Source of the DNA: a bacterium | GTDB lineage: Bacteria > UBA6262 > WVXT01 | Assembly: GCA_035530055.1 (NCBI GenBank) | Contig: DATKVN010000095.1 | Location: 1-59,695 of the forward strand | Reading direction: 5' to 3' | Length of the DNA stretch: 59,695 nucleotides | In this document: positions 5,717 to 50,135 of the stretch, piece after piece | How positions within the stretch are numbered: the first letter of the stretch is position 1 | How the letters are laid out: each line of letters opens with the position of its first letter | The notes under the pieces: model-generated | Told to the model about the DNA's origin: nothing | Databases searched by the model: none | The model's input: the letters and a program-made list of their open reading frames with translations, nothing else | Program-made: the position numbers and the translations under genes

Positions 5717-5740
5717 GGTGATGGAAGAAATGGAGAGTTC

Positions 5741-6325
5741 ATGATGAAAAGAATTTCGCTTTTTTTCTTTGTTTTTTCTCTTTTCTACTTTTTCCCTTTT
5801 ACACTTCCTGATGTAAGAGCAGTAATGCTTTCTTCGGAAAGAATTGCTTATGTAGACATAGATAGAGTCTTTGATGAATATAAAGGCATTAAACAAGCGA
5901 AAGAAAAGATAGAAAGAGAGATTGAAACGAAGAGAGGCGAGATAGCTAAACTGGAGAAGGAGATAAGAGATTTAGAATTTGCCATGAGGGAAAAGGAAAG
6001 AGTAGAACCAGTAGCTATCACGGGATTGGCCGAAAAAGAGGTGGAAATTTCTACTGGACCAGTTATCCCCAAACCACTTCCTGAAGAAATAATTAGACTG
6101 AATAAGGAAAAGCTTAATAAGATGGTAAAGAAAATGAAAGAGGAATTAGACAGGCTTGAGAAAGAGATGCCCCATCAGATTTTAGGAAAGATTTACGATG
6201 TGATTAGAGAGATTGCTCAGGCTGAAGGTTATGCTATCATTTTGGATAAGAAAAATATTCTGTATAGCGAAATAGAAAATGACCTCACTGAAAAAGTTAT
6301 ACAGATGTTGAATTTAGGTGAGTAA
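5741..6325 (+). CDS. skp: OmpH/Skp-family periplasmic chaperone
   Basis: Signal peptide, then a coiled-coil-rich 194-aa protein with IAYVDIDRVFDEYKG and a C-terminal AIILDKKNILY motif. Canonical position between bamA and lpxD. Confidence 0.8.
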   Translation: MMKRISLFFFVFSLFYFFPFTLPDVRAVMLSSERIAYVDIDRVFDEYKGIKQAKEKIEREIETKRGEIAKLEKEIRDLEFAMREKERVEPVAITGLAEKEVEISTGPVIPKPLPEEIIRLNKEKLNKMVKKMKEELDRLEKEMPHQILGKIYDVIREIAQAEGYAIILDKKNILYSEIENDLTEKVIQMLNLGE

Positions 6326-6328
6326 AAA

Positions 6329-6424
6329 GGAGTAGCGAAGCAAAGCTTCGCCTGCTGGACTCCTCCCGAAAGGGAGGTTTGGGCGACCACAAGGGTCGCC
6401 CCTACGCGATTCGCAAGGACTCCA
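6329..6424. repeat. Composite hairpin repeat: GGAGTAG half-element, GGACTCC-TCCC-GAAA-GGGA arm, GTAG-palindrome (GGGCGACC/GGTCGCCC+CTACGCG), GCAAGGACTCC arm
   Basis: Starts 4 nt after the skp stop. Its modules recur at 38831, 38892, 40008, 52379 and 16450. Stem CGAAGC/GCTTCG is a compensated version of CGAAAC/GTTTCG seen elsewhere. Confidence 0.85.
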
Positions 6425-6500
6425 GAATCTTTGGAATTCTCCCGAAAGCAAAGATTACGCTTTGGCGTGCCTTTTTGGATGTGGAGTAAGTTTGATGGGA

Positions 6501-7523
6501 ATGACTTTAAAGAAAATTGCTGAGCTTGTTGGTGGTGAACTCTCCGGGGATAGTAACATAGCAATCGAAGGAGTGGGTAGTCTGATAGAAGCAGAAAAAG
6601 GCGAGATTACATTCTTGGCAAGTTCCCGGTACAGGAGTCAGGTATTAAAGACTAAGGCTTCAGCTATTATTATCGGTGAGGGAGTTGAGCTACCAGAGAT
6701 TCCTTCAATACGGACAAAGAATCCCTATTTAGCTTTTGCCCAGGTAATGAAAGTGTTGGTTCCTCCCAAAAAACTACCCAGGGGAATAGACAAAACCAGC
6801 ATTCTTGGTAAGGGAGTGAAATTAGGTAAGGATGTTGCCATTGGAGCTTACGTGGTTATTGGAAAGGGCGTGGTGATTGGAGATAAGACTGTAATTTTTC
6901 CGGGGACCTACATTGGGGATAAAGCTGTGATTGGGAAGGATGGGCTAATCTATCCAAATGTTACTGTGAGAGAAGAAGTTATTATAGGCGATAATGTAAT
7001 TATTCACCCCGGTGCAGTTATTGGTGCGGATGGATTTGGTTATGCCACTGAAAAGGGAAAACATCATAAGATTCCCCAGGCGGGAACTGTGGAAATTGAA
7101 AATGGCGTGGAAATTGGAGCAAACGTTACTATCGACCGGGCAACTATGGGTAAAACCCTCATAGGTGAAGGGACGAAAATTGATAATCTTGTTCAGATTG
7201 GACATAATGTTAGAATAGGTAAAAACTGCCTTATAGTTTCCCAGGTAGGTATTTCGGGAAGTACGGTGATTGGTGATAATGTTGTCCTGGCTGGCCAGGC
7301 AGGGCTTGTTGGCCATATTACCGTTGGCGATAATGCAATTGTTGGTGCGCAGGCAGGAGTTACTAAAAGTGTTCCCGCCAATACTACTGTTTCCGGTTAT
7401 CCTGCCCGGGAACACAAGATAGCCCAAAAGATAGATGCTCAATTAATTAGATTGCCGAAATTGTATGAACAGATAAAAGAGTTAAAACAAAATATAGAGA
7501 AAACAAGAGAAAAAATAAAGTGA
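6501..7523 (+). CDS. lpxD: UDP-3-O-acylglucosamine N-acyltransferase LpxD
   Basis: [14 protein letters not shown]... N-terminus followed by a long hexapeptide (left-handed beta-helix) repeat region. ATG 6501 follows GGAGTAAG. The upstream 13 codons of the tracked ORF read into the repeat. Confidence 0.9.
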
Positions 7524-7603
7524 AAACATCAGGTCGGTCGTCCTTTAGGGTGACGGAATCGGCACTCTCAAGAGTGGGTGACCAAAAAGTTATGGAGGAA
7601 ATT

Positions 7604-8917
7604 ATGGATTTACAGAAGACTATAAAAAGAGAGAGCACTTATTCGGGAATAGGTCTACACACTGGGAACATAACTTCAGTGACCTTTAAGCCAGCACTAC
7701 CCAATTCTGGTATAAAATTTGTAAGGTCAGATTTACCAGGTAAGCCGGAAGTTGAAGCTAACATAAAGAATGTTATCAGTGTAGCACGAGGAACCACTCT
7801 GGGTAATGGCAGTTTCCAGATCCAGACGGTAGAGCATATTATGGCTACTCTATGCGGTTTGGGTATAGATAATCTCATCGTGGAAGTGAATGCTGGTGAA
7901 CCTCCTGTGGCTGATGGTAGCGGGATGCCTTTTGTGGAGACTCTGGAGAAGGCTGGTTTCCAAGAACAGAATGTAGAAAAGAACTACTTTACGATAACTG
8001 AACCTGTCAAGTTTTCCAATGAAGATGTCCATCTGGTCGTTCTGCCATCGGATGAATTTAAAGTATCTGCTACCATCGATTACAAACATAAAATTTTAAA
8101 GAGTCAGTACGGCACGTTTACCATAACCAAAGAGATTTTCGAAAAGGAGATTGCTCCCGCCAGGACATACTGTTTTGAGCATGAAATCGAATCGTTGAAA
8201 CGCCGAGGGTTGGCTCGCGGGGGTAATTTAGATAATGCGGTAGTAATTGGACAGGATGGCATTCATAATAAGGAGCTCAGATTTCCCGATGAATTTGTCC
8301 GCCACAAGATACTCGATTTAATAGGGGACATCTATTTAATAGGAAAACCTTTAAAAGCACACATTATTGCTATCCGCTGTGGACATGCTGCTAACATTGC
8401 TTTGACTAAAAGGTTAGGCGAACTCATAAAGAGATCTGCTGCTCGTCGAACGACTAAGACTTTTAAACAGGAAGGTTTTGAAGGAAAAGTCTTAGGTTTG
8501 GAAGAGATTCAGAATATAATTCCCCATCGTCCTCCTTTTCTATTTGTAGACAAAATAATTATGTCAGAGAATATGGTCAAAGCCGTGGGGTTCAAGAACA
8601 TAACTATTAATGAGGAATACTTCAAGGGACATTTCCCTGACTATCCGATTTTGCCTGGCGTTCTAATTATAGAATCGATGGCACAGACTTCCTGTGTTCT
8701 CTTCTTGGCCCGTTCGGATCTCAGAAAGAAACTGCCCTATTTTATGGCGATTAAAGAGGTTAAATTTCGTAAGCCTGTCTTCCCTGGCGATCAGCTGCAG
8801 CTGGAAGTTGAAGTTACTCGTGCCCGGGTGAGAGGAGGAAAGATTAAAGGTAAGGCGTATGTTAGGAATGAATTGGTGGCTGAGGCCGAATTTATGTTCT
8901 CCTTGGTAGATAGGTAA
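7604..8917 (+). CDS. lpxC/fabZ: Bifunctional UDP-3-O-acyl-GlcNAc deacetylase / 3-hydroxyacyl-ACP dehydratase (LpxC-FabZ fusion)
   Basis: LpxC motifs (GIGLHTG, HKILDLIGD, GHAANIAL), then a FabZ hot-dog domain (PHRPPFLFVDKI, FKGHFPDYPILPGVLIIESMAQ). ATG 7604 has GGAGGA 5 nt upstream. The tracked GTG 7520 start is probably too far upstream. Confidence 0.9.
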   Translation: MDLQKTIKRESTYSGIGLHTGNITSVTFKPALPNSGIKFVRSDLPGKPEVEANIKNVISVARGTTLGNGSFQIQTVEHIMATLCGLGIDNLIVEVNAGEPPVADGSGMPFVETLEKAGFQEQNVEKNYFTITEPVKFSNEDVHLVVLPSDEFKVSATIDYKHKILKSQYGTFTITKEIFEKEIAPARTYCFEHEIESLKRRGLARGGNLDNAVVIGQDGIHNKELRFPDEFVRHKILDLIGDIYLIGKPLKAHIIAIRCGHAANIALTKRLGELIKRSAARRTTKTFKQEGFEGKVLGLEEIQNIIPHRPPFLFVDKIIMSENMVKAVGFKNITINEEYFKGHFPDYPILPGVLIIESMAQTSCVLFLARSDLRKKLPYFMAIKEVKFRKPVFPGDQLQLEVEVTRARVRGGKIKGKAYVRNELVAEAEFMFSLVDR

Positions 8918-8972
8918 ATCGACAACGACAAGTAAGCAATGAGCATATACTACTAAACTTTTAGGAGAAAAA

Positions 8973-9746
8973 ATGAACATTCACAAAACAGCTTTAGTTC
9001 ATCCGGATGCAGTAATTGAAGAAGATGTGGACATTGGTCCATATACAATTATTGGACCGGATGTAAAGATTGGAAAAGGGACTGAGATTGGAGCTCGTGT
9101 AATAATCGAAGGAGATACTCAAATTGGCCAAAATTGTCAGATATGGACAGGAGCCATAATTGGAAATTTACCGCAGGATTTAAAGTTTAAAAGAGAAAAA
9201 ACGAGAGTCATAATTGGTGAGAATAATGTTATCCGGGAGTATGTAACCATCAACCGGGGAACGACTTCTACAGGAGAGACAACCATTGGAGATAACAATC
9301 TCATAATGGCATATGCTCATATCGCTCATGATTGTGTAATTGGCTCTAACGTGATTTTAGCTAACGTAGCTACTCTGGCGGGCCACGTAGTGATTGAGGA
9401 TAAGGCTATTGTGGGAGGGCTAACTCCAGTCCATCAGTTTGTGCGCATTGGCACATTGGGTATTGTGGGTGGAGGTTCTCGGGCAGCAAAAGATGTACCT
9501 CCCTATTGTATGGCAGCAGGGACACCCATTAGAATTTTTGGATTGAATACAGTGGGGTTACAAAGAAACAATTTCCCCAAGCATGTTAAAGCCCAGCTAA
9601 AGAGAGCCTACAAGGTTCTCTTCCGTTCCAAATTAAACACTACGCAAGCTTTGAACGTTTTGGAAAAAGAGTCAAACATCTCCGATGAATTGCTTCATAT
9701 GGTCGCCTTTATTAAAGAATCTGAGAGGGGAATCTGCAAAGAATGA
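8973..9746 (+). CDS. lpxA: Acyl-ACP--UDP-GlcNAc O-acyltransferase LpxA
   Basis: MNIHKTALVHPDAVIEEDVDIGPYTIIGP hexapeptide repeats. 257-aa size and C-terminal helical domain are typical of LpxA. Confidence 0.9.
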   Translation: MNIHKTALVHPDAVIEEDVDIGPYTIIGPDVKIGKGTEIGARVIIEGDTQIGQNCQIWTGAIIGNLPQDLKFKREKTRVIIGENNVIREYVTINRGTTSTGETTIGDNNLIMAYAHIAHDCVIGSNVILANVATLAGHVVIEDKAIVGGLTPVHQFVRIGTLGIVGGGSRAAKDVPPYCMAAGTPIRIFGLNTVGLQRNNFPKHVKAQLKRAYKVLFRSKLNTTQALNVLEKESNISDELLHMVAFIKESERGICKE

Positions 9747-10570
9747 AGATAGAGAATAGAAAGATTGGATTGATTGCTGGTAATGGGAATTTCCCTTTGA
9801 TTTTTGCACAAGAAGCGAAGAGAGTAGGAACAGAGGTGGTCGCTCTGGCAATAAAGAAAGAGACGAGTCCCAGCCTGGAAAATTTAGTAGATAGAATCCA
9901 CTGGGTCAATGTAGGACAATTGGGTGACCTGATTGAGATTTGTAAGAAAGAGGGGATAACCAGGGCAGTGATGGCCGGGCAGGTTAGACACACCCGCCTG
10001 TTCGGTCAGCTAAAGCTGGACGCAAGAGCTAGGGCTCTTTTGGCTGGAGTGAAGGATAAGAAGGCTAATTCTCTACTGGGAGCAGTGGCTGATGAGTTGT
10101 TGAGGGAGGGGATAGAACTAATAGATTCAGCTACCTATCTTTCCCACCTTTTGCCCTCTCCCGGTATTTTGACCCGCCGCAAACCTACTCAAAAGGAATG
10201 GCGAGATATCGAGTTTGGTCATAAGATGGCTAAAGAGATTGCTGGCCTGGACATCGGGCAGACAGTGGTGGTCAAGGACCAGGCCGTTTTAGCAGTGGAA
10301 GGAATGGATGGAACAGACAGCACCATAAAAAGGGGAGGGAAATTAGGCAAAGGAGATGTTGTGGTAGTGAAGGTAAGTAAACCCCAACAGGATAGGAGGT
10401 TTGACCTTCCCATTGTTGGTGAGAGGACAGTAGAAGTATTGAAACAGGCTAAAGCAAAAGTACTCGCTTTTAGTGCCCGCAGTACAATATTATTGGATAG
10501 GGAGAAAGTGGTTAAAAATGCCAACCAGAATGGTATTTCCCTGGTGGCAGTAAAAGAAGAAGAAAGTTAG
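9743..10570 (+). CDS. lpxI: UDP-2,3-diacylglucosamine diphosphatase LpxI (DUF1009 family)
   Basis: IGLIAGNGNFPLIFAQEAK N-terminus and DIGQTVVVKDQAVLAVEGMDGTD motif typical of LpxI. ATGA overlap with lpxA. No LpxH-like gene in the cluster. Confidence 0.8.
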   Translation: MKIENRKIGLIAGNGNFPLIFAQEAKRVGTEVVALAIKKETSPSLENLVDRIHWVNVGQLGDLIEICKKEGITRAVMAGQVRHTRLFGQLKLDARARALLAGVKDKKANSLLGAVADELLREGIELIDSATYLSHLLPSPGILTRRKPTQKEWRDIEFGHKMAKEIAGLDIGQTVVVKDQAVLAVEGMDGTDSTIKRGGKLGKGDVVVVKVSKPQQDRRFDLPIVGERTVEVLKQAKAKVLAFSARSTILLDREKVVKNANQNGISLVAVKEEES

Positions 10571-10578
10571 AAATCTAG

Positions 10579-10631
10579 GTAGTGTGGGGCTTTATGCCCG
10601 TAAGAATTACGCCCATAAAGGGATACACTAC
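10579..10631. repeat. Short form of the GTAGTGT...ACACTAC cruciform element
   Basis: GTAGTGTGG GGC-TTTAT-GCC CGTAA-GA-ATTACG CCC-ATAAA-GGG ATACACTAC. Same outer architecture as 52344-52452 but without the inner insert. Begins 9 nt after the lpxI stop. Confidence 0.85.
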
Positions 10632-10652
10632 GCACGAATTTTGGAGAGAGGA

Positions 10653-11588
10653 ATGGTTAGAGTTGGTGTGATTGGGGTTGGCCATATAGGTGCGCATCAT
10701 GCCCGGATTTATTCGCAAATCCCAGATGTAGAGTTGGCAGGAGTTGTAGATATTGAGCAGAAAAGAAGAGAGAAGCTCGCTCGAGAATATAATACAACTC
10801 CATATGCAAGTTATAGAGAGATTTTCAATAAGGTCGATGCAGTAAGTGTTGTGGTGCCTACCGATTTGCATTATCCTGTGGCAAAGGATTTTCTGGAAAG
10901 AGGCGTTCACTGTCTGGTAGAAAAGCCGATTACTCCCACTCTGGAAGAGGCTGAAGACCTGGTGAGTATAGCGCGCAAGAAGAATTTAATTTTACAGATA
11001 GGACACATTGAGCGGTTTAACAGCGCAATATTGGAGGCACAAAAATATATCAAGGAGCCAAAGTTTATCGAAGCTTACAGACTTGGACCTTACGACCCAC
11101 GCACTTCCAACATTGGAGTAGTGCTTGACTTGATGATTCACGATATCGACATTGTGCTCTATCTGGTACGCTCACCAGTGAGAAGTATCGATGCTATTGG
11201 CGGTAGTATCCTCTCTCAGAATGAAGATATTGCCAATGCCAGAATTAATTTTCAGAATGGCTGTGTAGCTAATATATCAGCAAGCCGGGTTTCCTTGGAA
11301 AAGTTTCGTAAGATTAGAATATTTCAAAAGGATGTCTATATTTCGTTAGATTATGCTAAGCAGAGTTTAAAAATTTATCAGAAAAAGGAAAAAGAAATTA
11401 AATCAATGAAGGATATGATGGTTTTGAGACCGCAACTGAAGAAGACAGACCCCTTGAGAGAAGAGTTGACACATTTTACTCAATGTGTGGAGAGAGGCAG
11501 GAAGCCCTTGGTTTCTGGCAAACATGGTCGGGACGCTCTGGAGATTGCTTTGGAAATTCTCAAGAAAATCAAGGAAAATTTGGGATAA
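10653..11588 (+). CDS. Gfo/Idh/MocA-family NAD-dependent oxidoreductase, GnnA-like by position (UDP-GlcNAc 3-oxidation)
   Basis: MVRVGVIGVGHIGAHHARIY Rossmann N-terminus and EKP motif (CLVEKPIT). Placed between lpxI and lpxB. ATG 10653 follows GGAGAGAGG. The tracked 23-codon extension translates the repeat. Confidence 0.7.
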   Translation: MVRVGVIGVGHIGAHHARIYSQIPDVELAGVVDIEQKRREKLAREYNTTPYASYREIFNKVDAVSVVVPTDLHYPVAKDFLERGVHCLVEKPITPTLEEAEDLVSIARKKNLILQIGHIERFNSAILEAQKYIKEPKFIEAYRLGPYDPRTSNIGVVLDLMIHDIDIVLYLVRSPVRSIDAIGGSILSQNEDIANARINFQNGCVANISASRVSLEKFRKIRIFQKDVYISLDYAKQSLKIYQKKEKEIKSMKDMMVLRPQLKKTDPLREELTHFTQCVERGRKPLVSGKHGRDALEIALEILKKIKENLG

Positions 11589-41383: not shown

Positions 41384-43218
41384 GGGAAGACATAAGGAAC
41401 TTTTCCATTATTGCCCATATAGACCATGGGAAGTCTACTCTTGCCGACAGGATTTTAGAGTTTACCAAGGCGGTAAGTGCCAGGGAGATGAGAGACCAGG
41501 TTCTGGACGATATGGACCTGGAGAGGGAGAAAGGAATTACCATAAAGGCAAAAGCAATCAGACTCGACTATGTTGCCAGTGATGGTAAGAAATATATTCT
41601 GAATCTAATTGATACCCCGGGACATGTCGATTTCACCTATGAAGTGGCACGGAGTCTTGTTGCCTGTGAAGGGACTCTTCTGGTTGTTGATGCTTGCCAG
41701 GGAGTTGAGGCCCAGACCCTGGCAAATGCCCATCTGGCTAAGGAAAATAATCTAAAGATTATTCCGGTGATAAATAAAATCGATTTACCAAATGCAGATA
41801 TATTAAGTGTGAAACGTCAAATTATGAAGATTATGAATGTTGATGAGGGGGATATTCTTCAGACAAGTGCTAAGTTGGGAAAAGGGATAAAAGAGGTGCT
41901 GGAAGCGATTGTTCACCAGATTCCTCCTCCTCGTGGCTCTCCTGATGGACCACTTTCTGCACTGGTCTTCGACTCGGTCTTCGATCCTTACCGGGGAGCA
42001 GTTATATATGTAAGAGTATTCGATGGTACCCTACGCCAGGGAATGAAAATAGAGATGATGTCTACAGGAAAAGTTTTTGAAGTTAATGAACTGGGCGTGT
42101 TCCATCTAAAGATGGTATCTGCTCCCAGCCTTGAGGCTGGCGAAGTAGGGTATCTGGTTGCTGGTATAAAAGATATACATAGTGTGAAAATTGGAGATAC
42201 AATTACCGACCCTTCGAGGCCAAAAGCAGAGCCTTATGGCAGGTTAAGGGAGGTAAAGCCTTTTGTCTTTTGTGGGCTCTACCCTGTGGATAGTGGAGAT
42301 TACGAACATTTGAAGAAAGCTCTGGAAAGGCTCGGGCTAAACGATGCCTCATTTGAGTACCAGGCGGAGGATTCAGTGCTTGGCTATGGCTTTCGCTGTG
42401 GATTCTTGGGACTTCTGCACATGGATATAATCAGGGAGCGCCTGGAGAGAGAATATGACCTGGATCTGGTTATCACTGCTCCCAATGTGGTTTACCGAAT
42501 AAAGAAAGTTAAGGGAGGAAAGAAAAAGAAAAAGGCTTCCCCGGAGGAAGAAGAGGAAACAGTTTATATAAATAACCCAGCCAACCTTCCGCCAGAAAAT
42601 GAGATTGCCGAGATCGCCGAACCTTTCGTCAGGGTGACCATTATTCTGCCCGGTGAGTTTCTGGGAGGAGTAATGAAACTTATGGAGAAAAGAAGGGCAA
42701 AGTTTATTTCTATGAAATATATAAATCCTCAAAGAGTAATTTTGACTTACGAATTGCCCCTTGCGGAAATGATAGCCGGTTTCTATGACCGGTTGAAGTC
42801 GGTCAGCCGTGGATTTGCCTCTCTCGATTATCAGCATATCGGTTATAAGGCAGGAGATCTGGCAAAATTGGTAATACTGATAAATTACCAACCGGTGGAG
42901 GCCCTTTCTGTAATTCTTCCCCGGGAAAAGGCATTTTATCGAGCACAGAAAATTGCTAAGGAGTTAAAGGAAGTAATTCCCAGACAGCAGATTCCTGTGC
43001 CCATTCAAGCCAAAATCGAAAATAAAATCATTGCTCGGGAAACAATTAGAGCTTTCCGCAAGGATGTAATTGCCAAGTTATACGGCGGAGATATTACCAG
43101 AAAGAGGAAACTTCTGGAAAAACAGAAGGAAGGCAAGAAAAAAATGAAAAGATTAGGAAAAGTAGACATTCCCCAGGAGGCCTTTCTAACTTTCTTAAAA
43201 TTTAATGAGGAGGAGTAA
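41380..43218 (+). CDS. lepA: Translation elongation factor 4 (LepA)
   Basis: IRNFSIIAHIDHGKSTLADR, DTPGHVDF and NKID GTPase motifs, plus the LepA C-terminal domain. TTG start overlaps the mtaB stop. K/E-rich insertion encoded at 42514-42558. Confidence 0.95.
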   Translation: MREDIRNFSIIAHIDHGKSTLADRILEFTKAVSAREMRDQVLDDMDLEREKGITIKAKAIRLDYVASDGKKYILNLIDTPGHVDFTYEVARSLVACEGTLLVVDACQGVEAQTLANAHLAKENNLKIIPVINKIDLPNADILSVKRQIMKIMNVDEGDILQTSAKLGKGIKEVLEAIVHQIPPPRGSPDGPLSALVFDSVFDPYRGAVIYVRVFDGTLRQGMKIEMMSTGKVFEVNELGVFHLKMVSAPSLEAGEVGYLVAGIKDIHSVKIGDTITDPSRPKAEPYGRLREVKPFVFCGLYPVDSGDYEHLKKALERLGLNDASFEYQAEDSVLGYGFRCGFLGLLHMDIIRERLEREYDLDLVITAPNVVYRIKKVKGGKKKKKASPEEEEETVYINNPANLPPENEIAEIAEPFVRVTIILPGEFLGGVMKLMEKRRAKFISMKYINPQRVILTYELPLAEMIAGFYDRLKSVSRGFASLDYQHIGYKAGDLAKLVILINYQPVEALSVILPREKAFYRAQKIAKELKEVIPRQQIPVPIQAKIENKIIARETIRAFRKDVIAKLYGGDITRKRKLLEKQKEGKKKMKRLGKVDIPQEAFLTFLKFNEEE

Positions 43219-43222
43219 GGAA

Positions 43223-43993
43223 ATGGTGTCCATTTTGTATTATCTAAGTACTGGTATAACAATTGTAGTTATACTTTTTATCTTCTTTAAGTTACCGGAA
43301 ATGCAGACCGAGCTCAAAATGTTAATCGTTGCCGGAATTTTGGGTGTGGAGACTTTATTGCTTAGGTGGATTACCAAAAGGGCAAAGGAGAAGTTCCTAA
43401 ATAAAGTTAACATGACCAAAGAGTGGGTGAACACCGGGCTTGTAGCAGTGGTATTAGCATGGGTAATAATGTCTTTTATTATTCAGGCATTTAAGATACC
43501 CTCTGGTTCTATGATGGATACACTTAAGATTGGAGACCACATTTTTGTAGCAAAATTTATTTACGGAGTCCATATTCCTTTCAGTAAGAAATACATCTTT
43601 CCCCTTCAGGAGCCCAAGCGAAAAGAAATAGTCGTATTTCAGTTTCCCCTTGACCCCAAGAAGGATTTCATTAAGCGATGTATCGGAGTCCCTGGCGATA
43701 CAATTGAGATAAAAGATAAGAAAGTCTATGTTAATGGTGAACTACAGGAGGAAGAATACGCTATTTATACAGATGAAAAGGTTTATCCCAACTCTAGGCA
43801 GATGCCTCTTATGTATAGGAACCGTGACAATCTTGGCCCCCTTGTTGTTCCGGAAGATTTCTACTTTGTGATGGGTGACAACCGCGACCACAGTTATGAT
43901 AGCCGTTTTTGGGGTCCCTTAGAGAGAGGGAGGATTAAAGGAAAAACGCTTTTCTTATACTGGCCACCAAAGAGGGTAAGGGTAATCAGATAA
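43223..43993 (+). CDS. lepB: Signal peptidase I (LepB)
   Basis: IPSGSMMDTL (catalytic Ser), KRCIGVPGD (Lys box), GDNRDHSYDSRFWG. ATG 43223 preferred; ATG 43205 is an alternative start. Confidence 0.9.
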   Translation: MVSILYYLSTGITIVVILFIFFKLPEMQTELKMLIVAGILGVETLLLRWITKRAKEKFLNKVNMTKEWVNTGLVAVVLAWVIMSFIIQAFKIPSGSMMDTLKIGDHIFVAKFIYGVHIPFSKKYIFPLQEPKRKEIVVFQFPLDPKKDFIKRCIGVPGDTIEIKDKKVYVNGELQEEEYAIYTDEKVYPNSRQMPLMYRNRDNLGPLVVPEDFYFVMGDNRDHSYDSRFWGPLERGRIKGKTLFLYWPPKRVRVIR

Positions 43994-44077: not shown

Positions 44078-44788
44078 ATGAAAAAAAGTAGCCTGTCCCC
44101 TTTTAAAATGAGTCTAATAGGGCATATGGAAGAACTGAGAAGAAGACTCATTATTTGCATCCTTACAGTTCTAGGGTGTTCAATCTTTAGTTACCTCTAT
44201 TCTGATAAGATTCTCACCTTTTTGAAAAGGCCTTTCCCCCATCCCTTAGTGTTTATAGCACCGCAAGAACCGTTTATCATAACCTTGAAAGTTGCCATAT
44301 TTGGTGGGATTATATTTGCTTTGCCGATGATAACTTATCAGGTCTGGCAATTTGTTTCCTCAGGTTTAAAAAAGAAAGAAAAGAGGTATTTACTCTTCTA
44401 CAGTCCATTTTCGCTACTTCTATTCCTGAGTGGGGCAAGCTTTGCTTACTTTCTGGTCATTCCAGTAGGTTTAAGATTTTTGCTCAGTTTCGGTGGTAGT
44501 TTTTTGCAGCCCATGATTTCCATAAGCAAATACTTATCTTTCATTACTCTAATGATTTTTGCCTTTGGTATCGTCTTTGAGTTACCACTGGTGTTTCTGT
44601 TTCTGACCAGGATGGGCATAGTAACCCCCCAGTTTTTAGCAAAGAAAAGGAAGGTGTTCATTATAGCCATTTTTGTTTTAGCTGCCATTCTTACTCCACC
44701 CGATGTTTTCACTCAAATTCTCCTGGCAGTGCCTCTTTTGATTCTTTATGAAGTGAGCATCTGGCTTACAAAGATAGTCGCTCACTAG
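44078..44788 (+). CDS. tatC: Twin-arginine translocase subunit TatC
   Basis: MSLIGHMEELRRRLI N-terminus and six TM helices of typical TatC length. Confidence 0.9.
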   Translation: MKKSSLSPFKMSLIGHMEELRRRLIICILTVLGCSIFSYLYSDKILTFLKRPFPHPLVFIAPQEPFIITLKVAIFGGIIFALPMITYQVWQFVSSGLKKKEKRYLLFYSPFSLLLFLSGASFAYFLVIPVGLRFLLSFGGSFLQPMISISKYLSFITLMIFAFGIVFELPLVFLFLTRMGIVTPQFLAKKRKVFIIAIFVLAAILTPPDVFTQILLAVPLLILYEVSIWLTKIVAH

Positions 44789-44841
44789 AGAGACGAAGGA
44801 AAAGTTTATATAAAAACCATAATTATAGGGGTATTTTAAGG

Positions 44842-46065
44842 ATGAAAGGGGATTTTTATAGAAGGAAATTATCCAGGAGAGAATTTTTTAAAATGTGTGC
44901 TTTTAGCGGCGTTGCTCTGGCGTCGGTTCCTTTGCTCGTTGATATTTTGAAAGCTGCTGCCTCCAGGCCAAAAAGTGGCGAGAAAGGTTTTATTTCCCAG
45001 AGAGAGGCGATGTTTTACAAAAAGCTGGATGAAACGACAATTCAGTGTCAGCTTTGCCCCAGGAGGTGCACACTTTCAGAGGGAATGAGAGGATTCTGTC
45101 GTTCCAGGGAGCCACATGAAGGTAAGCATTATTCAATGGTATATGGTAATCCCTGTGCCATTCACGTTGACCCCATTGAGAAGAAACCTCTTTTCCACTT
45201 TTTGCCTCAAACAGCTGCCTTCTCCATTGCCACGGCTGGCTGTAATTTGCGGTGTAAATTCTGCCAGAATTGGCAGATTTCACAGTTCCCTCCCGAGGAT
45301 ACAGTAAATTATGAATTGCCTCCGGAAGGAGTAGTCGATTTGGCTATCAAATATGACTGTCCTACAATAGCTTATACGTATTCGGAACCTTCTATATTCT
45401 ATGAATATATGTACGATACGGCTGTAATTGCCAGGGAGAGGGGAGTGAAGAACATCTATCACTCCAATGGATATCTCAACCCTGAACCTTTAAAGGAAAT
45501 TTGCAAATATCTTGATGGAGCAAACGTAGACCTGAAAGGGTTTACTCAGAAATTTTATGGAGAACTTTGTGGAGCAACTCTTAAGCCTGTTTTGAATACC
45601 CTGGAAACGCTAAAAGAAGAAGGAGTGCATGTTGAGATTACTAACCTCATTGTCCCACCTTATAATGATGGTATGGAAAAGATAAAAGAGATGTGCTTGT
45701 GGATACGCGATAATTTAGGGAAGGAAGTGCCTCTCCATTTTTCCAGGTTCCATCCACTCTATAAATTAAAGAATCTCTCACCAACTCCTGTAAGCACATT
45801 GGAGAAAGCGAGAAAAGTGGCCCTGAAAGTGGGCTTGGAGTATGTATATATAGGAAATGTGCCTGGCCATCCTGGTGAGAATACCTATTGTCCCCAAGAT
45901 GGAAAACTCCTTATCCACAGAAAGGGTTATCAAATCCTGGAGAATAATGTTGTTGGAGGAAAATGTAAATTTTGTGGCCAGCCAGTTCCAGGTGTATGGC
46001 CTGAAGAAAAGGTCAGGAAAAAGACAGAACTTCCCTCACTAAAAGTATCGAAATATTTAGGATAG
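44842..46065 (+). CDS. AmmeMemoRadiSam-type radical SAM enzyme with an N-terminal twin-arginine (Tat) signal
   Basis: SRREFFK plus a hydrophobic stretch and AAAS. CQLCPRRCTLSEGMRGFC motif. Radical SAM motif CNLRCKFC. C-terminal CPQDG...CKFCG ribbon, as in the TIGR04337 family as I remember it. Confidence 0.75.
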   Translation: MKGDFYRRKLSRREFFKMCAFSGVALASVPLLVDILKAAASRPKSGEKGFISQREAMFYKKLDETTIQCQLCPRRCTLSEGMRGFCRSREPHEGKHYSMVYGNPCAIHVDPIEKKPLFHFLPQTAAFSIATAGCNLRCKFCQNWQISQFPPEDTVNYELPPEGVVDLAIKYDCPTIAYTYSEPSIFYEYMYDTAVIARERGVKNIYHSNGYLNPEPLKEICKYLDGANVDLKGFTQKFYGELCGATLKPVLNTLETLKEEGVHVEITNLIVPPYNDGMEKIKEMCLWIRDNLGKEVPLHFSRFHPLYKLKNLSPTPVSTLEKARKVALKVGLEYVYIGNVPGHPGENTYCPQDGKLLIHRKGYQILENNVVGGKCKFCGQPVPGVWPEEKVRKKTELPSLKVSKYLG

Positions 46066-46071
46066 GGAGAA

Positions 46072-48363
46072 GTGAAAAAATACCTCGTTTTGGGCTTGAT
46101 TCTCATAGGCTTTACCTCCCTGGCCTCCCAGATTGTGTTAATGAGAGAGTTAATGGTTGTCTTTTATGGCAACGAACTCTCTCTAGGTATTACTCTGGCG
46201 GGTTGGCTATTCTGGGTAGCTATGGGAAGCTGGGGAATTGGCAGGTTCTTTGTTGAACGGATCAGATATAAACTTGCCTTTTTTGTTTTCGCAGAACTCC
46301 TTTTAGCATTATTCCTTCCTGCAAGTATTTTTGCTGCTCGAGCCATACCTCTCCTCCTCAAGACCTCACCCGGAGAAATCATCGGGTTTTTTCCCATGAC
46401 ATATTCGAGTCTGGCTATTCTTGCTCCTACATCCCTGCTTTTAGGGTTTCTCTTCGTTCTGGGATGTCGCATCTACTCACCCAAAGAGAGAGAAGGTCCA
46501 GAACATATCGGCTATGTCTACGTGCTGGAAGCAATAGGTGCTACAGCAGGTGGACTTCTCTCCAGCCTTCTTTTAATCCGGGTACTGCCGCCACTTTATA
46601 TTATGCTGGGAATAGGTCTCCTTAATCTGGGAGTTGCCTTTTCCTTAACGTGGTTCCTGGAAGAAAAGAAGTCTCTTCTCCTTCTTCCAACTTCTATACT
46701 GATTCTTTTGAGCTTGAGTCTTTTTTCTTTTGGAAAAGTTGGAGACTTGCGTCAGGCTTCTCTGGAATTGCGCTGGAGAACTTACCATCCATTGACCTCT
46801 AGAAATTCTATATACGGAAACATTACTGTTATCCAGAAGGATAACACCTATAGTTTCTTCAACAATGGACTTTATAACTTTACCGTTCCCGATGAGTTGA
46901 CCAGTGAGAGAATTGCACATTTTGCCCTTCTGGAGCATCCACAACCAAGAAAGGTTTTACTTATTGGTGGAGGGGTAAGTGGGGTTTTAAAGGAAATTCT
47001 CAAACATCCTGTAGAAAAAGTCGACTACCTGGAATTGGATCCTCTAATGATTACCCTGGCAAAAGAGTACCTCTGTTCCACAGAAGAGTATGCCTTGAAT
47101 GATAGGCGAGTGGAGGTGAAAAATATAGATGGTCGATTGTTCATTAAGCGAACTTCCAGTAAGTATGACCTTATTATCGTCAATCTTCCCCAGCCCTTTA
47201 CCGCCCAGATAAATAGATTCTATACTTTCGAATTTTTTAAAGACGCAAGAAAAATCTTAAAAGAGAAAGGAATACTCTTTTTTGGAATTACTTCCTCGCC
47301 CAATTACATCAGTGAAGAGCAACGAAATCTTCTGGTTTCGCTTAATGAATCCTTAAAGAAGGTTTTTGCTGAAGTGAGAGTTATTCCCGGAGATACCAAT
47401 TACTTTTTGGGCTGTAAGAGTAAGGGAGTTCTTACTCTCGATTATCAGAGACTTATGGAAAGGCTAAATGAGAGAAAAGTGAAAGCAAAATATGTCCGGG
47501 AATACTATTTGGCGAGCGAGTTATCGGATGAAAGGATTGACTATCTGGAAGGGAAACTTCTGCCTTTACCAAAGGTTATGCTCAATTACGACTTTCGTCC
47601 CATATCTTACTATTATGATATGGTGCTCTGGTCTACACATTTCAAGTTCTCTCTGGCAAGAATTTTTAAGAAAATTTCTCCCAAAGTAATCTATATTGCT
47701 GCCATCTTAATCTACTGCGCCATTCTTCTACCCATCTGGTTGAGAAAGTCAAGAGACGAAGTTCGGCCTGTAGCTGTTCTTACTGCTGTGGCAACCACAG
47801 GGTTTGCCGAGATAACGTTCCAAGTTTTAACTTTGCTTTCCTTTCAGATTATCTACGGTTATGTATACTATAAATTGAGCATAATTCTTACATCCTTTAT
47901 GATTGGGCTAATTTTTGGTGGCTGGTGGGCCAGCAAAATTATCGAAAAAGGTCAGGGCAATTTTATGAATTTCATACAGGCTCAGATTTATATATGCATT
48001 TATCCCCTGATTCTCCCCTTCATATTTTTAGGTTTTGCTGGCTCATCGGGAAAATTTAGTACATATCTGGGTTCAAACATTATCCTGCCTTTTCTTCCCA
48101 TAATTGCTGGTTTCATTGGCGGATTCCAATTTCCCCTGGCCAATAAATTATATCTTCAATCCAGGGGAGGATTGGTAAGGGCAGCGGGACTTACTTATGG
48201 TGTTGACCTTTTCAGTTCCTGCCTGGGCGCTCTTTTGGTGAGCGTTTTTCTTCTGCCGATTCTGGGTATTCCCGCGGTCTGTTTGATGGTGGCGCTTTTG
48301 AATCTGGTAAGCCTGGTTCTTCTTTTGAGAGGAGCTGGGAGTACTTTGAGGACATTATCATGA
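46072..48363 (+). CDS. Polytopic membrane protein with a central spermidine-synthase-like (class I SAM-fold) domain (fused MFS/spermidine-synthase type)
   Basis: About 7 N-terminal TM helices. Soluble domain with VLLIGGGVSGVLKEIL...YLELDP...DLIIVNLPQP. About 7 further C-terminal TM helices. GTG start 7 nt after the rSAM stop. Confidence 0.7.
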   Translation: MKKYLVLGLILIGFTSLASQIVLMRELMVVFYGNELSLGITLAGWLFWVAMGSWGIGRFFVERIRYKLAFFVFAELLLALFLPASIFAARAIPLLLKTSPGEIIGFFPMTYSSLAILAPTSLLLGFLFVLGCRIYSPKEREGPEHIGYVYVLEAIGATAGGLLSSLLLIRVLPPLYIMLGIGLLNLGVAFSLTWFLEEKKSLLLLPTSILILLSLSLFSFGKVGDLRQASLELRWRTYHPLTSRNSIYGNITVIQKDNTYSFFNNGLYNFTVPDELTSERIAHFALLEHPQPRKVLLIGGGVSGVLKEILKHPVEKVDYLELDPLMITLAKEYLCSTEEYALNDRRVEVKNIDGRLFIKRTSSKYDLIIVNLPQPFTAQINRFYTFEFFKDARKILKEKGILFFGITSSPNYISEEQRNLLVSLNESLKKVFAEVRVIPGDTNYFLGCKSKGVLTLDYQRLMERLNERKVKAKYVREYYLASELSDERIDYLEGKLLPLPKVMLNYDFRPISYYYDMVLWSTHFKFSLARIFKKISPKVIYIAAILIYCAILLPIWLRKSRDEVRPVAVLTAVATTGFAEITFQVLTLLSFQIIYGYVYYKLSIILTSFMIGLIFGGWWASKIIEKGQGNFMNFIQAQIYICIYPLILPFIFLGFAGSSGKFSTYLGSNIILPFLPIIAGFIGGFQFPLANKLYLQSRGGLVRAAGLTYGVDLFSSCLGALLVSVFLLPILGIPAVCLMVALLNLVSLVLLLRGAGSTLRTLS

Positions 48364-49355
48364 GTGATATTTTTGAAAAAAAATTTTCCCGAAGGGAATT
48401 CTTGAAAATGGTATCTCTCCTGGGGACCACTGTTTTCCTGGGGAACTTTCTTCCTTTAAAACAGCGGGCAAAAACTTCTGCTGTTTTAGTTGGTATAGCC
48501 AGAGGTGATTCAATAGCCGATTCGGTTCGCCGGGCTATAAACTTAGCCGGTGGGTTAGATTTCATCAAATCGGGAGAGTCTGTCCTGATTAAGCCAAACG
48601 TTAATTCCGATGACCCCCATCCTGGAACAACCAACCCAGAGGTAGTATTCGAGGTGGTGAACATGGTCAGGGAGAAAGGAGCCAAAAGAATAATCGTTGC
48701 CGACCGTTCAAATCCCTGGTGGGATACTTTAAAAGCGATGAAGAAAGTAGGTATATATGAAGCTGCTGTTAAAGGAGGCGCGGAGGTAGTCGTTTTCAGT
48801 AAAGGAGATTATGTAAAAGTTAATCCAGAAAATTCTTACCATTGGCCCAATGGATTTCGCATACCCAAGTTGGTGAAACAGGTTGACCACATAATTAGCC
48901 TGCCAGTAGCAAAGACTCATATTATTGCTGACTTCACTATGGGCATAAAAAATTGGGTAGGCTTGATACCTCCTTCTGACAGAAAATATCTTCATCTTGA
49001 AAAGAAAGACTATTTTGCTAGCATGCTCAGCGAGATTCACTTGGCAAGGAAACCTTCCTTTTTGGTGATGGATGCCACAAAGGTCTTCGTTTCCGGTGGA
49101 CCTTCTCATGGAGATATAGCTCGGCCCGGTTTGGTAATGGCCACCTCGGATTTAGTGGCTAATGATGTTACTGGGCTGGCGTTACTTAAGACACTGGGTA
49201 CCATTGAGGAAATTCAGAAGAAGAGTGTTTGGGACCAGCCCCAAATCAAAAGAGCAGTTGAATTAGGCTTGGGCATAAACAGTCCTTCTGAAATTATCCT
49301 CAAGACATATGGTATCCCTGAAGAAGAGAAGATTCGAAAACAATTGCTAAGCTAA
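48360..49355 (+). CDS. DUF362-domain protein with an N-terminal Tat signal
   Basis: SRREFLK is a perfect Tat consensus, followed by a hydrophobic region and AKTSA. DUF362-like VLIKPNVNS...AKTH motifs. No cysteine in the whole protein. ATGA overlap with the preceding gene. Confidence 0.7.
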   Translation: MSDIFEKKFSRREFLKMVSLLGTTVFLGNFLPLKQRAKTSAVLVGIARGDSIADSVRRAINLAGGLDFIKSGESVLIKPNVNSDDPHPGTTNPEVVFEVVNMVREKGAKRIIVADRSNPWWDTLKAMKKVGIYEAAVKGGAEVVVFSKGDYVKVNPENSYHWPNGFRIPKLVKQVDHIISLPVAKTHIIADFTMGIKNWVGLIPPSDRKYLHLEKKDYFASMLSEIHLARKPSFLVMDATKVFVSGGPSHGDIARPGLVMATSDLVANDVTGLALLKTLGTIEEIQKKSVWDQPQIKRAVELGLGINSPSEIILKTYGIPEEEKIRKQLLS

Positions 49356-49501: not shown

Positions 49502-49561
49502 GGCACTCTTTAGAGTGCCACTTCTATTCGCGGATAACCAAACTTCCGCTTTAGTGGAAGT
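49502..49561 (+). repeat. Two TTTA-loop hairpins
   Basis: GGCACTC-TTTA-GAGTGCC (49502-49519). ACTTCCGC-TTTA-GTGGAAGT (49542-49561), with one G.T pair on the + strand. Confidence 0.7.
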
Positions 49562-49567
49562 AATTTT

Positions 49568-49592
49568 ATACTTGACAAAATTAGTCAGATTT
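49568..49592 (+). promoter_or_regulatory. Candidate IscR type-1 operator overlapping the -35 box
   Basis: ATACTTGACAAAATTAGTCAGATTT matches 22 of 25 positions of the type-1 consensus ATASYYGACTRwwwYAGTCRRSTAT as I remember it. Confidence 0.5.
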
Positions 49593-49600
49593 GTTAAATT
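49572..49600 (+). promoter_or_regulatory. sigma70-like promoter of the iscR-iscU operon
   Basis: TTGACA (49572-49577), 17-nt spacer, TAAATT (49595-49600). Confidence 0.6.
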
Positions 49601-49673: not shown

Positions 49674-50135
49674 GTGTTATTATCCAGTAAGGGAGAGTAT
49701 GGAGTAAGGTGCATGCTCGACCTTGCCCTCCACTATGGTCAGGGGCCGGTTTCTATCCGAGACATATCTAAGCGAGAGGGAATTTCCAAGAATTACATTG
49801 AACAACTGTTTGTCCGTCTTCGGCATGCCAAACTAATTAAGAGTGTCCGTGGTCCGAAGGGAGGCTATTTATTAACCTCTCAGCCAGGAGGGATTAAAGT
49901 TGGTGATATTGTTAGGGCTCTGGAGGGGCCTATAGCTGCAGCGCATTGTGTCCAGCCGCAAAATTCGAAAGATTTATGTGAACGCATTTCTACCTGTGTT
50001 CCTTATGTCTTATGGAAAAGATTAACCAACAAGATAAACGAAGTGCTGGACAGCGCCACGTTAGAGGACTTATGTAGAGAGGGCGTGAAACTTTCAAAGC
50101 ACAGATTGGTCCATCCCCTTCCCTTTCAAATTTAA
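49674..50135 (+). CDS. iscR: Rrf2-family transcriptional regulator, IscR-like
   Basis: (M)LLSSKGEYGVRCMLDLA wHTH N-terminus. Three clustered Cys (CVQPQNSKDLCERISTC) suitable for an Fe-S cluster. GTG start after AAAGGAGTGAGG. Confidence 0.8.
   Translation: MLLSSKGEYGVRCMLDLALHYGQGPVSIRDISKREGISKNYIEQLFVRLRHAKLIKSVRGPKGGYLLTSQPGGIKVGDIVRALEGPIAAAHCVQPQNSKDLCERISTCVPYVLWKRLTNKINEVLDSATLEDLCREGVKLSKHRLVHPLPFQI

Follow-up and report, generated by a model that had tools for sequence, protein, structure and literature searches.

Radical S-adenosylmethionine (SAM) enzymes make up one of the largest superfamilies of enzymes. Their need for SAM and for an electron donor of low potential is the reason why they are regarded as strictly cytoplasmic. 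The twin-arginine translocation (Tat) pathway exports folded, cofactor-loaded proteins and complexes, and we know of no radical SAM enzyme among its characterised substrates. The molecular functions of Memo and AMMECR1, whose human homologues are both linked to disease, are unresolved. All three families meet in the AmmeMemoRadiSam trio, which is known but uncharacterised (TIGRFAMs/NCBIfam; Aravind-group papers; PMC2034487) and is mentioned in PMC7159879. Papers found to name AmmeMemoRadiSam mention it only in passing. The trio was defined by comparative genomics and consists of an AMMECR1-like protein A (TIGR04335), a Memo-like protein B (TIGR04336) and a radical SAM enzyme (TIGR04337). Here, we describe a 59,695-nucleotide (nt) stretch of bacterial DNA (contig DATKVN010000095.1 of assembly GCA_035530055.1; GTDB lineage Bacteria; UBA6262; WVXT01), referred to as the window, in which a radical SAM enzyme of this type with a predicted Tat signal, a membrane protein with a domain like spermidine synthase (SpeE) and a DUF362 protein are encoded directly downstream of tatC.

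The analysis pointed to a periplasm-facing variant of the AmmeMemoRadiSam system. From the predicted signals, it is quite likely that the components work on the periplasmic side, and the combined explanation, including a mechanism, is the one we favour with moderate confidence. An earlier note on this DNA had suggested an extracytoplasmic or membrane-face machine, and this proved the best-fitting reading: conserved signals were identified on the radical SAM enzyme, on DUF362 and on a Memo-AMMECR1 fusion, and the SpeE-like domain was predicted to be periplasmic. As in the canonical system, the radical SAM and Memo-AMMECR1 family models were matched, and the fusion was located within 5 kb of the radical SAM gene in 32 of 81 loci (the window and 80 loci from a scan of species genomes, in which more than 598 stretches matched in all). 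The variant differs in that its components carry export signals, Memo and AMMECR1 are fused, and a SpeE-like protein with 14 transmembrane (TM) helices is a regular fourth partner. The genome under study also splits the system over two loci and adds DUF362 and tatC; this two-locus split, the added tatC and the Tat-type DUF362 are specific to the window.

The finding challenges the strictly cytoplasmic view of radical SAM enzymes. A multi-phylum, deeply conserved clade with export signals on its components would bring the cell envelope within the scope of radical chemistry, and it would imply an unrecognised route for SAM across the inner membrane. The compartment also narrows the search for the Memo and AMMECR1 substrate, which in these bacteria would have to be accessible from the periplasm. 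In the accessible literature, neither export signals on AmmeMemoRadiSam components nor a SpeE-like membrane partner were found described, and our literature search returned no paper on a periplasmic radical SAM enzyme. Burroughs et al. 2019 (JBC), who reportedly analysed and extended Memo gene contexts, may cover part of this.

The operon and its twin-arginine leaders

The four open reading frames (ORFs) that the earlier note had described were all recovered by ORF listing and family scans at the same coordinates. The genes and their features are as follows.

44078-44788, + strand: tatC, Tat translocase core subunit (PF00902, 235 bits; TIGR00945, 204 bits)
44842-46065, + strand: AmmeMemoRadiSam-type radical SAM enzyme, 407 amino acids, with a predicted Tat signal (TIGR04337, PF04055)
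44842-44961, + strand: predicted Tat signal peptide, residues 1-40 of the radical SAM enzyme (SRREFFK at 44872-44892, moderately hydrophobic h-region, AAA↓S cleavage motif)
45046-45099, + strand: N-terminal auxiliary cysteine motif CQLCPRRCTLSEGMRGFC of the radical SAM enzyme (C69, C72, C76, C86)
45241-45264, + strand: radical SAM cluster motif CNLRCKFC (C134, C138, C141)
46048-46062, + strand: conserved C-terminal tail SKYLG of the radical SAM enzyme (alignment of the window protein with closer relatives)
46072-48363, + strand: membrane protein, 763 amino acids, with TM1-7, a SpeE-like domain and TM8-14 (PF01564, 115 bits; NF037959)
46072-46746, + strand: N-terminal half of the membrane protein, residues 1-225, TM1-7 (TM1-6 being repeat A)
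46774-47571, + strand: SpeE-fold domain of the membrane protein, residues ~235-500
47680-48342, + strand: C-terminal half of the membrane protein, residues 537-757, TM8-14 (TM9-14 being repeat B)
48360-49355, + strand: DUF362 protein, 331 amino acids, no cysteine, SRREFLK leader at 48387-48407 (PF04015, 161 bits; TIGR01409)

The coupling of the three genes downstream of tatC, also claimed in the note, was confirmed by reading both junctions in the sequence. The stop codon of the radical SAM gene (TAG, 46063-46065) is followed by GGAGAA and the GTG start of the membrane-protein gene at 46072, leaving a gap of 6 nt, and the membrane-protein and DUF362 genes share an ATGA start-stop overlap at 48360-48363. 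The gap between tatC and the radical SAM gene measures 53 nt and contains no terminator-like hairpin. All large ORFs of the window lie on the + strand, and co-orientation with tatC alone therefore means little. However, tatC was also found directly 5' of the radical SAM orthologue in G001/L013 and L016 and nearby in L017, L018 and L051. A Tat motif scan of all ORFs of at least 100 amino acids in the 1.68-Mb genome (96% complete) revealed three convincing leaders, on the small subunit of a NiFeSe hydrogenase (contig C15), the radical SAM enzyme and DUF362. Two of these three clients follow tatC, and TatA/B-like genes lie beside the hydrogenase; the Tat machinery of the genome comprises tatC in the window and two TatA/B-like ORFs on C15, the latter recognised by motif only. 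The recurrence of tatC elsewhere and the presence of only three predicted Tat clients weakened the possibility that tatC adjoins the operon by chance.

Both leaders, SRREFFK and SRREFLK, were encoded as previously read. The radical SAM enzyme scored 382.3 bits against TIGR04337 (curated cut-off 220), and its N-terminus displayed the features of a Tat signal, namely SRREFFK, a hydrophobic h-region and a small-x-small site (AAA↓S). Conservation of the leader in orthologues was examined, and the arginine pair (RR) was kept in 94 of 106 full-length homologues (59-98% identity), most of the others having RK or KR. In the 94 sequences with RR the context was S/T-R-R-x-F-(C/L/F)-K; a moderately hydrophobic segment came next, and then an AxA-type motif whose place in the alignment is fixed. 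The DUF362 leader matched the Tat-signal model TIGR01409 with 18.8 bits (cut-off 16.7), and among the full-length DUF362 orthologues at 74% identity or more, almost all retained SRR(E/D)FLK and one had SRK. More distant homologues (Dictyoglomus, Atribacterota and others) carried Tat, general secretory (Sec) or lipoprotein signals, which indicates that this DUF362 subfamily is generally extracytoplasmic. No clear signal-peptidase site was observed in the DUF362 leader; the protein may therefore stay membrane-anchored. Its description as cysteine-free was borne out by a count of zero cysteines.

The auxiliary cysteine motif of the CQLCPRRCTLSEGMRGFC type was present in all 79 radical SAM sequences listed (related loci and window), and in the alignment C69, C72 and C86 did not vary at all and C76 hardly varied. 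Three cysteine motifs were kept in every leader class described below: CX3CX2C, the auxiliary CxxCx3C...C and the C-terminal Cx2(C/D)...Cx2C. The exported clade has 56 invariant residues, 47 and 43 of which were identical in two leaderless paralogues of the phylum, and the residues common to both groups include the CX3CX2C and DPIEKKP motifs. By these residues, the exported protein looks like a working radical SAM enzyme that has kept the full catalytic core of its family. A sequence search of the PDB found no relative closer than PflA. Selenocysteine was considered for the G007 and G010 paralogues ('1 TGA inside') and rejected, as translation showed the TGA to be a plain stop codon. The C-terminal tail of the enzyme reads SKYLG, SKYQG, SVYLG or CRFIG in closer relatives, and in Omnitrophota-type loci the split Tat escort peptides (see below) end in a similar ...(K/D/R)LAG before the stop codon. 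The SKYLG-like tail may be a docking or processing motif.

Export signals and partners across the clade

The 81 loci span more than 15 phyla, including Omnitrophota, Thermodesulfobacteriota, Nitrospirota, Ignavibacteriota, Bacteroidota and Planctomycetota, as well as Zixibacteria, KSB1, Aminicenantes, Eisenbacteria and WOR-3; Thermodesulfovibrionales, Desulfobacterales, Ignavibacteriales and Bacteroidales are among the orders represented. The radical SAM enzyme carried a Tat-type RR leader in 42 loci, a KR or RK variant in 9, a Sec-type signal in 21 and no leader in cis in 9. The nine leaderless enzymes begin just before the first cysteine motif and lack the 'EAMFYKKLD' segment. At all nine of these loci (L034, L053, L056, L057, L068, L077, L078, L092 and L094), an ORF of 43-76 amino acids was located just 3' of the radical SAM gene (8144-8275 in L056). 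Its product consists of a twin-arginine or RK leader, an h-region and precisely the segment that the enzyme lacks, e.g. MKRRAFLRIFLLGIILAMSGKKVKAENKPETKPKEAMFWRKLD. The Tat signal of the nine split loci is thus predicted to be supplied in trans by the small ORF, and export, in cis or in trans, is a predicted property of this clade as a whole.

Flanking ORFs within 5 kb of the radical SAM gene were clustered and named by Pfam, and two of the accessory genes were found to follow the leader class. A DsbD_2/CcdA-like gene was present at 13 of the 21 Sec-type loci (L019, L028, L033, L037, L040, L043, L046, L060, L062, L069, L075, L085 and L091) and at none of the 60 others (Fisher p = 5e-10, with kinship ignored). 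DUF362 was a neighbour at 11 of the 42 Tat-RR loci and at none of the remaining 39 (Fisher p = 5e-4, again ignoring kinship); six of these 11 DUF362 proteins had an RR leader and five had no leader. The switch was also observed within one phylum, where G002 (L014/L015) combines a Sec-type enzyme with DsbD_2, and the lineage of the window combines a Tat-type enzyme with tatC and DUF362. It is difficult to see why a thiol-reductant conduit should occur only where the cysteine-rich enzyme is translocated unfolded, unless this enzyme works outside. These correlations, in which DUF362 goes with Tat leaders, DsbD_2 with Sec signals and an escort peptide with split leaders, would offer direct predictions for the export and maturation of iron-sulfur (Fe-S) proteins.

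The Tat-type version resembles known Tat-exported Fe-S enzymes, such as the small subunits of [NiFe]-hydrogenases (among them that of the organism's own NiFeSe hydrogenase) and Rieske proteins, in its S/T-R-R-x-F-L-K leader, in its predicted export as a folded, cluster-loaded protein, and in partners that would leave on a single signal (the hitchhiker mode). It differs from them in that a radical SAM enzyme needs SAM as a consumable co-substrate besides electrons.

Two partners dominated the neighbourhood of the radical SAM gene. The 14-TM SpeE-like protein was encoded within 5 kb at 41 of the 81 loci, and either this protein or the Memo-AMMECR1 fusion (~500 amino acids, at the 32 loci given above) was present at 55, with both at 18. 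The other recurrent neighbours, besides the DsbD_2/CcdA-like protein and DUF362, included a NapH-like polyferredoxin (8 loci). The SpeE-like gene was found upstream, downstream, convergent or divergent relative to the radical SAM gene, and this varied orientation argues for functional linkage rather than inherited synteny. [quoted passage not shown] One further genome, G007, has a second, divergent pair with overlapping genes (radical SAM enzyme 50% and SpeE-like protein 36% identical).

The order radical SAM, SpeE-like, DUF362 was kept throughout the family of the window (f1) and only there. The phylum was sampled by 12 species genomes, and in G001, from another family, the order was tatC, radical SAM, methyltransferase, SpeE-like, with no DUF362 anywhere in the genome. 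The methyltransferase of G001 (L013:2586-3383) is a leaderless class I enzyme (Methyltransf_23) situated between the Tat-type radical SAM gene and the SpeE-like gene. The trio of the operon was accordingly rejected as a conserved unit: the proposed neighbourhood analysis upheld the adjacency of the radical SAM and SpeE-like genes, but DUF362, present at only 11 loci, did not follow. The conserved core, as read from gene content, appears to be the radical SAM enzyme, the 14-TM SpeE-like protein and the Memo-AMMECR1 fusion, with DUF362 as an accessory.

The note had also described the Memo and AMMECR1 partners as absent, which holds for this locus but not for the genome, as a signal-bearing fusion is encoded on contig C42. 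This protein of 505 amino acids matched TIGR04336 (288 bits) and TIGR04335 (186 bits), begins with a Sec-type signal (MAKESKMCFRRTFLFFVFLFFCISSQGVAEA↓YES) and is 38-46% identical, over its full length, to the fusions encoded beside exported radical SAM genes in other phyla. Each of the phylum's 12 genomes has a fusion, which in the sister order (G002/G003) shares a locus with the radical SAM and SpeE-like genes. The N-termini of the 32 neighbouring fusions were mostly Sec-type or lipoprotein-type signals, some ending in lipobox-like motifs.

The membrane protein, the proposed mechanism and its rivals

The earlier note had described the second protein as polytopic with a central spermidine-synthase-fold domain, and this description stood. 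PF01564 matched residues 278-439, and the NF037959 model ('fused MFS/spermidine synthase') matched with 50.9 bits (cut-off 40). Hydropathy over 47 homologues and an AlphaFold2 (AF2) model (mean predicted local distance difference test score, pLDDT, 86.6) agreed on seven helices, the SpeE-like domain and seven further helices. Lysine and arginine (K+R) were concentrated in the N-terminus, loops 2, 4, 6, 8, 10 and 12 and the C-terminus (1.5-4.0 each, ~21 in total), and were scarce in loops 1, 3, 5, 9, 11 and 13 (means of 0-1.0 each, ~3 in total). Both flanks set the SpeE-like domain opposite the K+R-rich loops, and by the positive-inside rule it is therefore predicted to face the periplasm. Residues 3-194 and 567-753 were found to be homologous (hhalign probability 97%, E 6e-11), so that TM1-6 corresponds to TM9-14, and the loop counts place both six-helix halves in the same orientation. 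In layout the protein thus resembles a 14-TM transporter of the major facilitator superfamily (MFS), with the domain predicted to occupy the outward loop that joins the two central helices. The two homologous parallel halves and two extra central helices are shared with the 14-TM DHA2-type MFS transporters, from which the protein differs in that the Pfam MFS families do not match its TM halves and only NF037959 does.

Foldseek matched the domain to SpeE structures with TM-scores of 0.69-0.78 (normalised to target length), including the N-terminal beta-hairpin domain. Alignment to the SpeE proteins of T. maritima and B. subtilis (1INL and 1IY9) showed that E321 and D353-G are kept, and both are invariant or nearly so in the homologues of the membrane protein. 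We take E321 to be the ribose-binding glutamate and D353-G the adenine-binding Asp-Gly, roles known from structural work on the T. maritima enzyme. The SpeE motif GGGDGG is replaced by GGGVSG (46966-46983), with no aspartate at that position in the 47 homologues. N371 occupies the position of the catalytic aspartate, at which N, H or S occurs in the family (N371..Q374 at 47182-47193), and Q374 (47191-47193) that of the second aspartate, where 40 of the 47 homologues have Glu or Asp. The GGGDGG aspartate presumably selects decarboxylated SAM, and we take the catalytic aspartate to be D170 of T. maritima SpeE, with D173 as the second. The protein also fell below the cut-offs of the NCBIfam SpeE equivalog models. 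The domain therefore shares with SpeE (1INL, 1IY9, 1UIR) the fold, the ribose-binding glutamate and the adenine-binding Asp-Gly, and differs from it in the replacement of both aspartates and in its insertion between TM7 and TM8, on the predicted periplasmic side. These substitutions suggest an adenosyl-binding module rather than an aminopropyltransferase. With the GGGDGG aspartate and the catalytic aspartate lost, the suggestion of polyamine-like substrates found no support and was dropped.

A mechanism can be proposed on this basis. The radical SAM enzyme would fold and take up its Fe-S clusters in the cytoplasm and be exported by TatABC; alongside the membrane protein and Memo-AMMECR1, it would then act on the periplasmic surface of the inner membrane. 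The MFS-like part would translocate either an adenosyl compound (SAM or one related to it) or the substrate, and the SpeE-derived periplasmic domain, its aminopropyl-transfer chemistry lost, would hold or present this cargo. Electrons would come from a low-potential source in the periplasm, e.g. the Tat-exported NiFeSe hydrogenase, and DUF362 would serve the Tat-type version as an accessory that depends on the lineage. As substrate, an envelope lipid or polymer would be the likeliest candidate. The idea that a membrane protein supplies a cytoplasmic cofactor to chemistry outside has an analogue in the AT3/TmAT acyltransferases, membrane enzymes that deliver a donor from the cytoplasm to an acceptor outside (PMC12423673). 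The role of cofactor or substrate conduit assigned to the membrane protein in the earlier note fits its two homologous six-helix halves, and a part for this protein in providing or displaying SAM, or an adenosyl compound akin to it, is put forward only tentatively. The same note saw no obvious supply of SAM or reductant outside the cytoplasm. For the reductant this can be relaxed, as the Tat-exported hydrogenase is a plausible low-potential electron source within reach of the enzyme; for SAM it stands, and to our knowledge no periplasmic source has been described.

Taken to its full extent, the reading would have radical SAM catalysis take place outside the cytoplasm on SAM exported by a dedicated MFS-type protein and handed over on a SpeE-derived domain. 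The recipient would be exported by Tat, by Sec or by a 43-76-residue twin-arginine escort peptide, the electrons would come from a periplasmic hydrogenase or membrane redox modules, and Memo-AMMECR1 would complete the modification of an envelope lipid or polymer. We regard all of these parts holding jointly as possible but doubtful. If they did, Fe-S clusters would be loaded outside the cytoplasm in the Sec-type lineages, and a CcdA-like protein would keep the thiols reduced.

Several observations weigh against the periplasm-facing reading. The localisation was deduced from signals in the sequence and by the positive-inside rule, and the TIGR01409 model reported no match for the radical SAM enzyme at E ≤ 0.01. 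The two TM halves matched no Pfam family at E ≤ 10, and Foldseek with the full membrane-protein model returned only SpeE-domain matches among the top 50. Neither partner was present within 5 kb at 26 of the 81 loci, many of these on short contigs, and in the family of the window Memo-AMMECR1 is encoded near leaderless radical SAM paralogues and not near this operon. The lack of a known periplasmic SAM source, mentioned above, belongs here as well. Lastly, the 21 Sec-type orthologues, which are presumably exported unfolded, keep all cysteine ligands. As we know of no Fe-S cluster assembly outside the cytoplasm, these orthologues form the main unexplained point for every reading.

The supply problem would disappear if the radical chemistry took place once in the cytoplasm, on the enzyme itself or on a bound partner, before Tat exported the finished complex or a SAM-loaded single-turnover enzyme; the membrane protein would then be a docking site or a product exporter. 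Such a course agrees with the folded, cofactor-loaded cargo of Tat and with the split-leader loci, which show export in trans by a small partner in this very family, and the five leaderless DUF362 neighbours could be carried along. We consider it unlikely, because the Sec-type orthologues cannot fold before export and yet keep every cysteine, because the adenosyl-binding residues on the periplasm-facing domain suggest an adenosyl ligand outside, and because Memo-AMMECR1 is exported separately by Sec. The conserved residues likewise make it improbable that the exported protein is no longer a radical SAM catalyst but a periplasmic Fe-S electron carrier or structural subunit, accompanied by a SpeE-like pseudo-enzyme unrelated to SAM. 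The loss of both catalytic aspartates, the lack of a known periplasmic SAM pool and the recurrence of redox partners (DsbD_2, NapH-like polyferredoxins) beside the system would suit such a role; against it stand the close agreement with the two cytoplasmic paralogues (47 and 43 of the 56 invariant residues), the near invariance of the adenosyl-contacting E321 and D353-G in the partner, and the link to Memo and AMMECR1, which is shared with the canonical system and argues for the same chemistry.

The leader might also be a mere membrane tether, with the radical SAM and SpeE-like domains on the cytoplasmic side of an ordinary cytoplasmic pathway. No new biology would then be needed for SAM or reductant, and the DUF362 leader indeed has no clear cleavage site. 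A positive N-terminus followed by a single hydrophobic helix, however, predicts an N-in, C-out orientation, and AxA-type sites occur at a conserved alignment position. Classical Sec signals replace the leader in 21 loci, with DsbD_2 strictly confined to these, and the partner Memo-AMMECR1 fusions start with signal peptides, some with lipobox-like ends. A cytoplasmic SpeE-like domain would moreover place all K/R-rich loops outside the cell, and we judge the tether very improbable.

DUF362, paralogues and surrounding genes

The DUF362 protein was modelled with AF2 (mean pLDDT 89.8), and a Foldseek search with this model returned the LarA lactate/malate racemases as best matches (E 6e-7, probability 1.0, TM-score 0.40-0.47). 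K185, H187, K197 and H212 were invariant in the DUF362 alignment, and a sequence search of the PDB found no solved DUF362 structure. DUF362 and LarA (DUF2088) belong to one Pfam clan, CL0471 (PMC11770544). The likeness to the LarA superfamily thus extends to clan and fold, with TM-scores of only 0.40-0.47; a difference is that many close DUF362 homologues carry Sec or lipoprotein signals, which argues against a cytoplasm-loaded cofactor as a general feature. The genome encodes larE, larB, larC and a separate LarA homologue. A nickel-pincer cofactor as the cause of the DUF362 Tat leader was therefore not established, given this true LarA homologue and the Sec and lipoprotein signals of the homologues.

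Contig C15 (L100:2679-10730) holds, within 8 kb, larE-larB-larC, the NiFeSe hydrogenase (large subunit 5561-6973, small subunit 6977-7891), its maturation protease, the two TatA/B-like ORFs and a DUF362 paralogue (9732-10730).

Radical SAM paralogues were observed at several other places. In the family of the window, as on C42 (L005:236-2922), the Memo-AMMECR1 fusion directly follows a divergent leaderless radical SAM gene (387 amino acids, TIGR04337 only 84 bits). In G008 (L101) and G006 (L102), its neighbourhood also includes DUF72, a further TIGR04337 paralogue without a leader, a 249-amino-acid radical SAM protein and a PCMT with a predicted export signal, which we take to be a protein-L-isoaspartate O-methyltransferase, a SAM-dependent enzyme of protein repair. 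Contig C78 of the genome under study (L004:4689-10346) encodes a further leaderless TIGR04337 paralogue (325 bits) with no Memo or AMMECR1 beside it. One flank holds genes for Rnf-Nqr membrane subunits, an RnfB-like Fe-S protein and CutA1; the opposite flank holds ApbE, NusG_II and Hpre_diP_synt_I.

In the genome under study, a PCMT encoded at C43:14068-14832 has a signal peptide that closes with a lipobox-like motif (MRKKIILFLIISCLMVLNCC...), and a leaderless copy is present on C20 (~8770-9405); the PCMT orthologues of G002 and G008 have lipobox-like signals too. By its signal, PCMT is apparently another SAM-dependent enzyme outside the cytoplasm. The idea that an exported PCMT regularly accompanies the system was rejected, as it was absent from the 80 related loci.

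Two further features flank the operon in the window.

43205-43993, + strand: lepB-like (signal peptidase I) gene, an ORF that adjoins tatC on its 5' side, two genes upstream of the radical SAM gene
49502-49561, + strand: two terminator-like hairpins in the 320-nt gap 3' of the DUF362 gene

The name lepB is our reading of sequence motifs only; on that reading, an export-related gene pair (lepB, tatC) would precede the operon. The hairpins likely mark the end of the operon. They are followed by a promoter-like site (49572-49600), which lies 5' of a gene at 49674 that we take, from its sequence, to be Rrf2/IscR-like.

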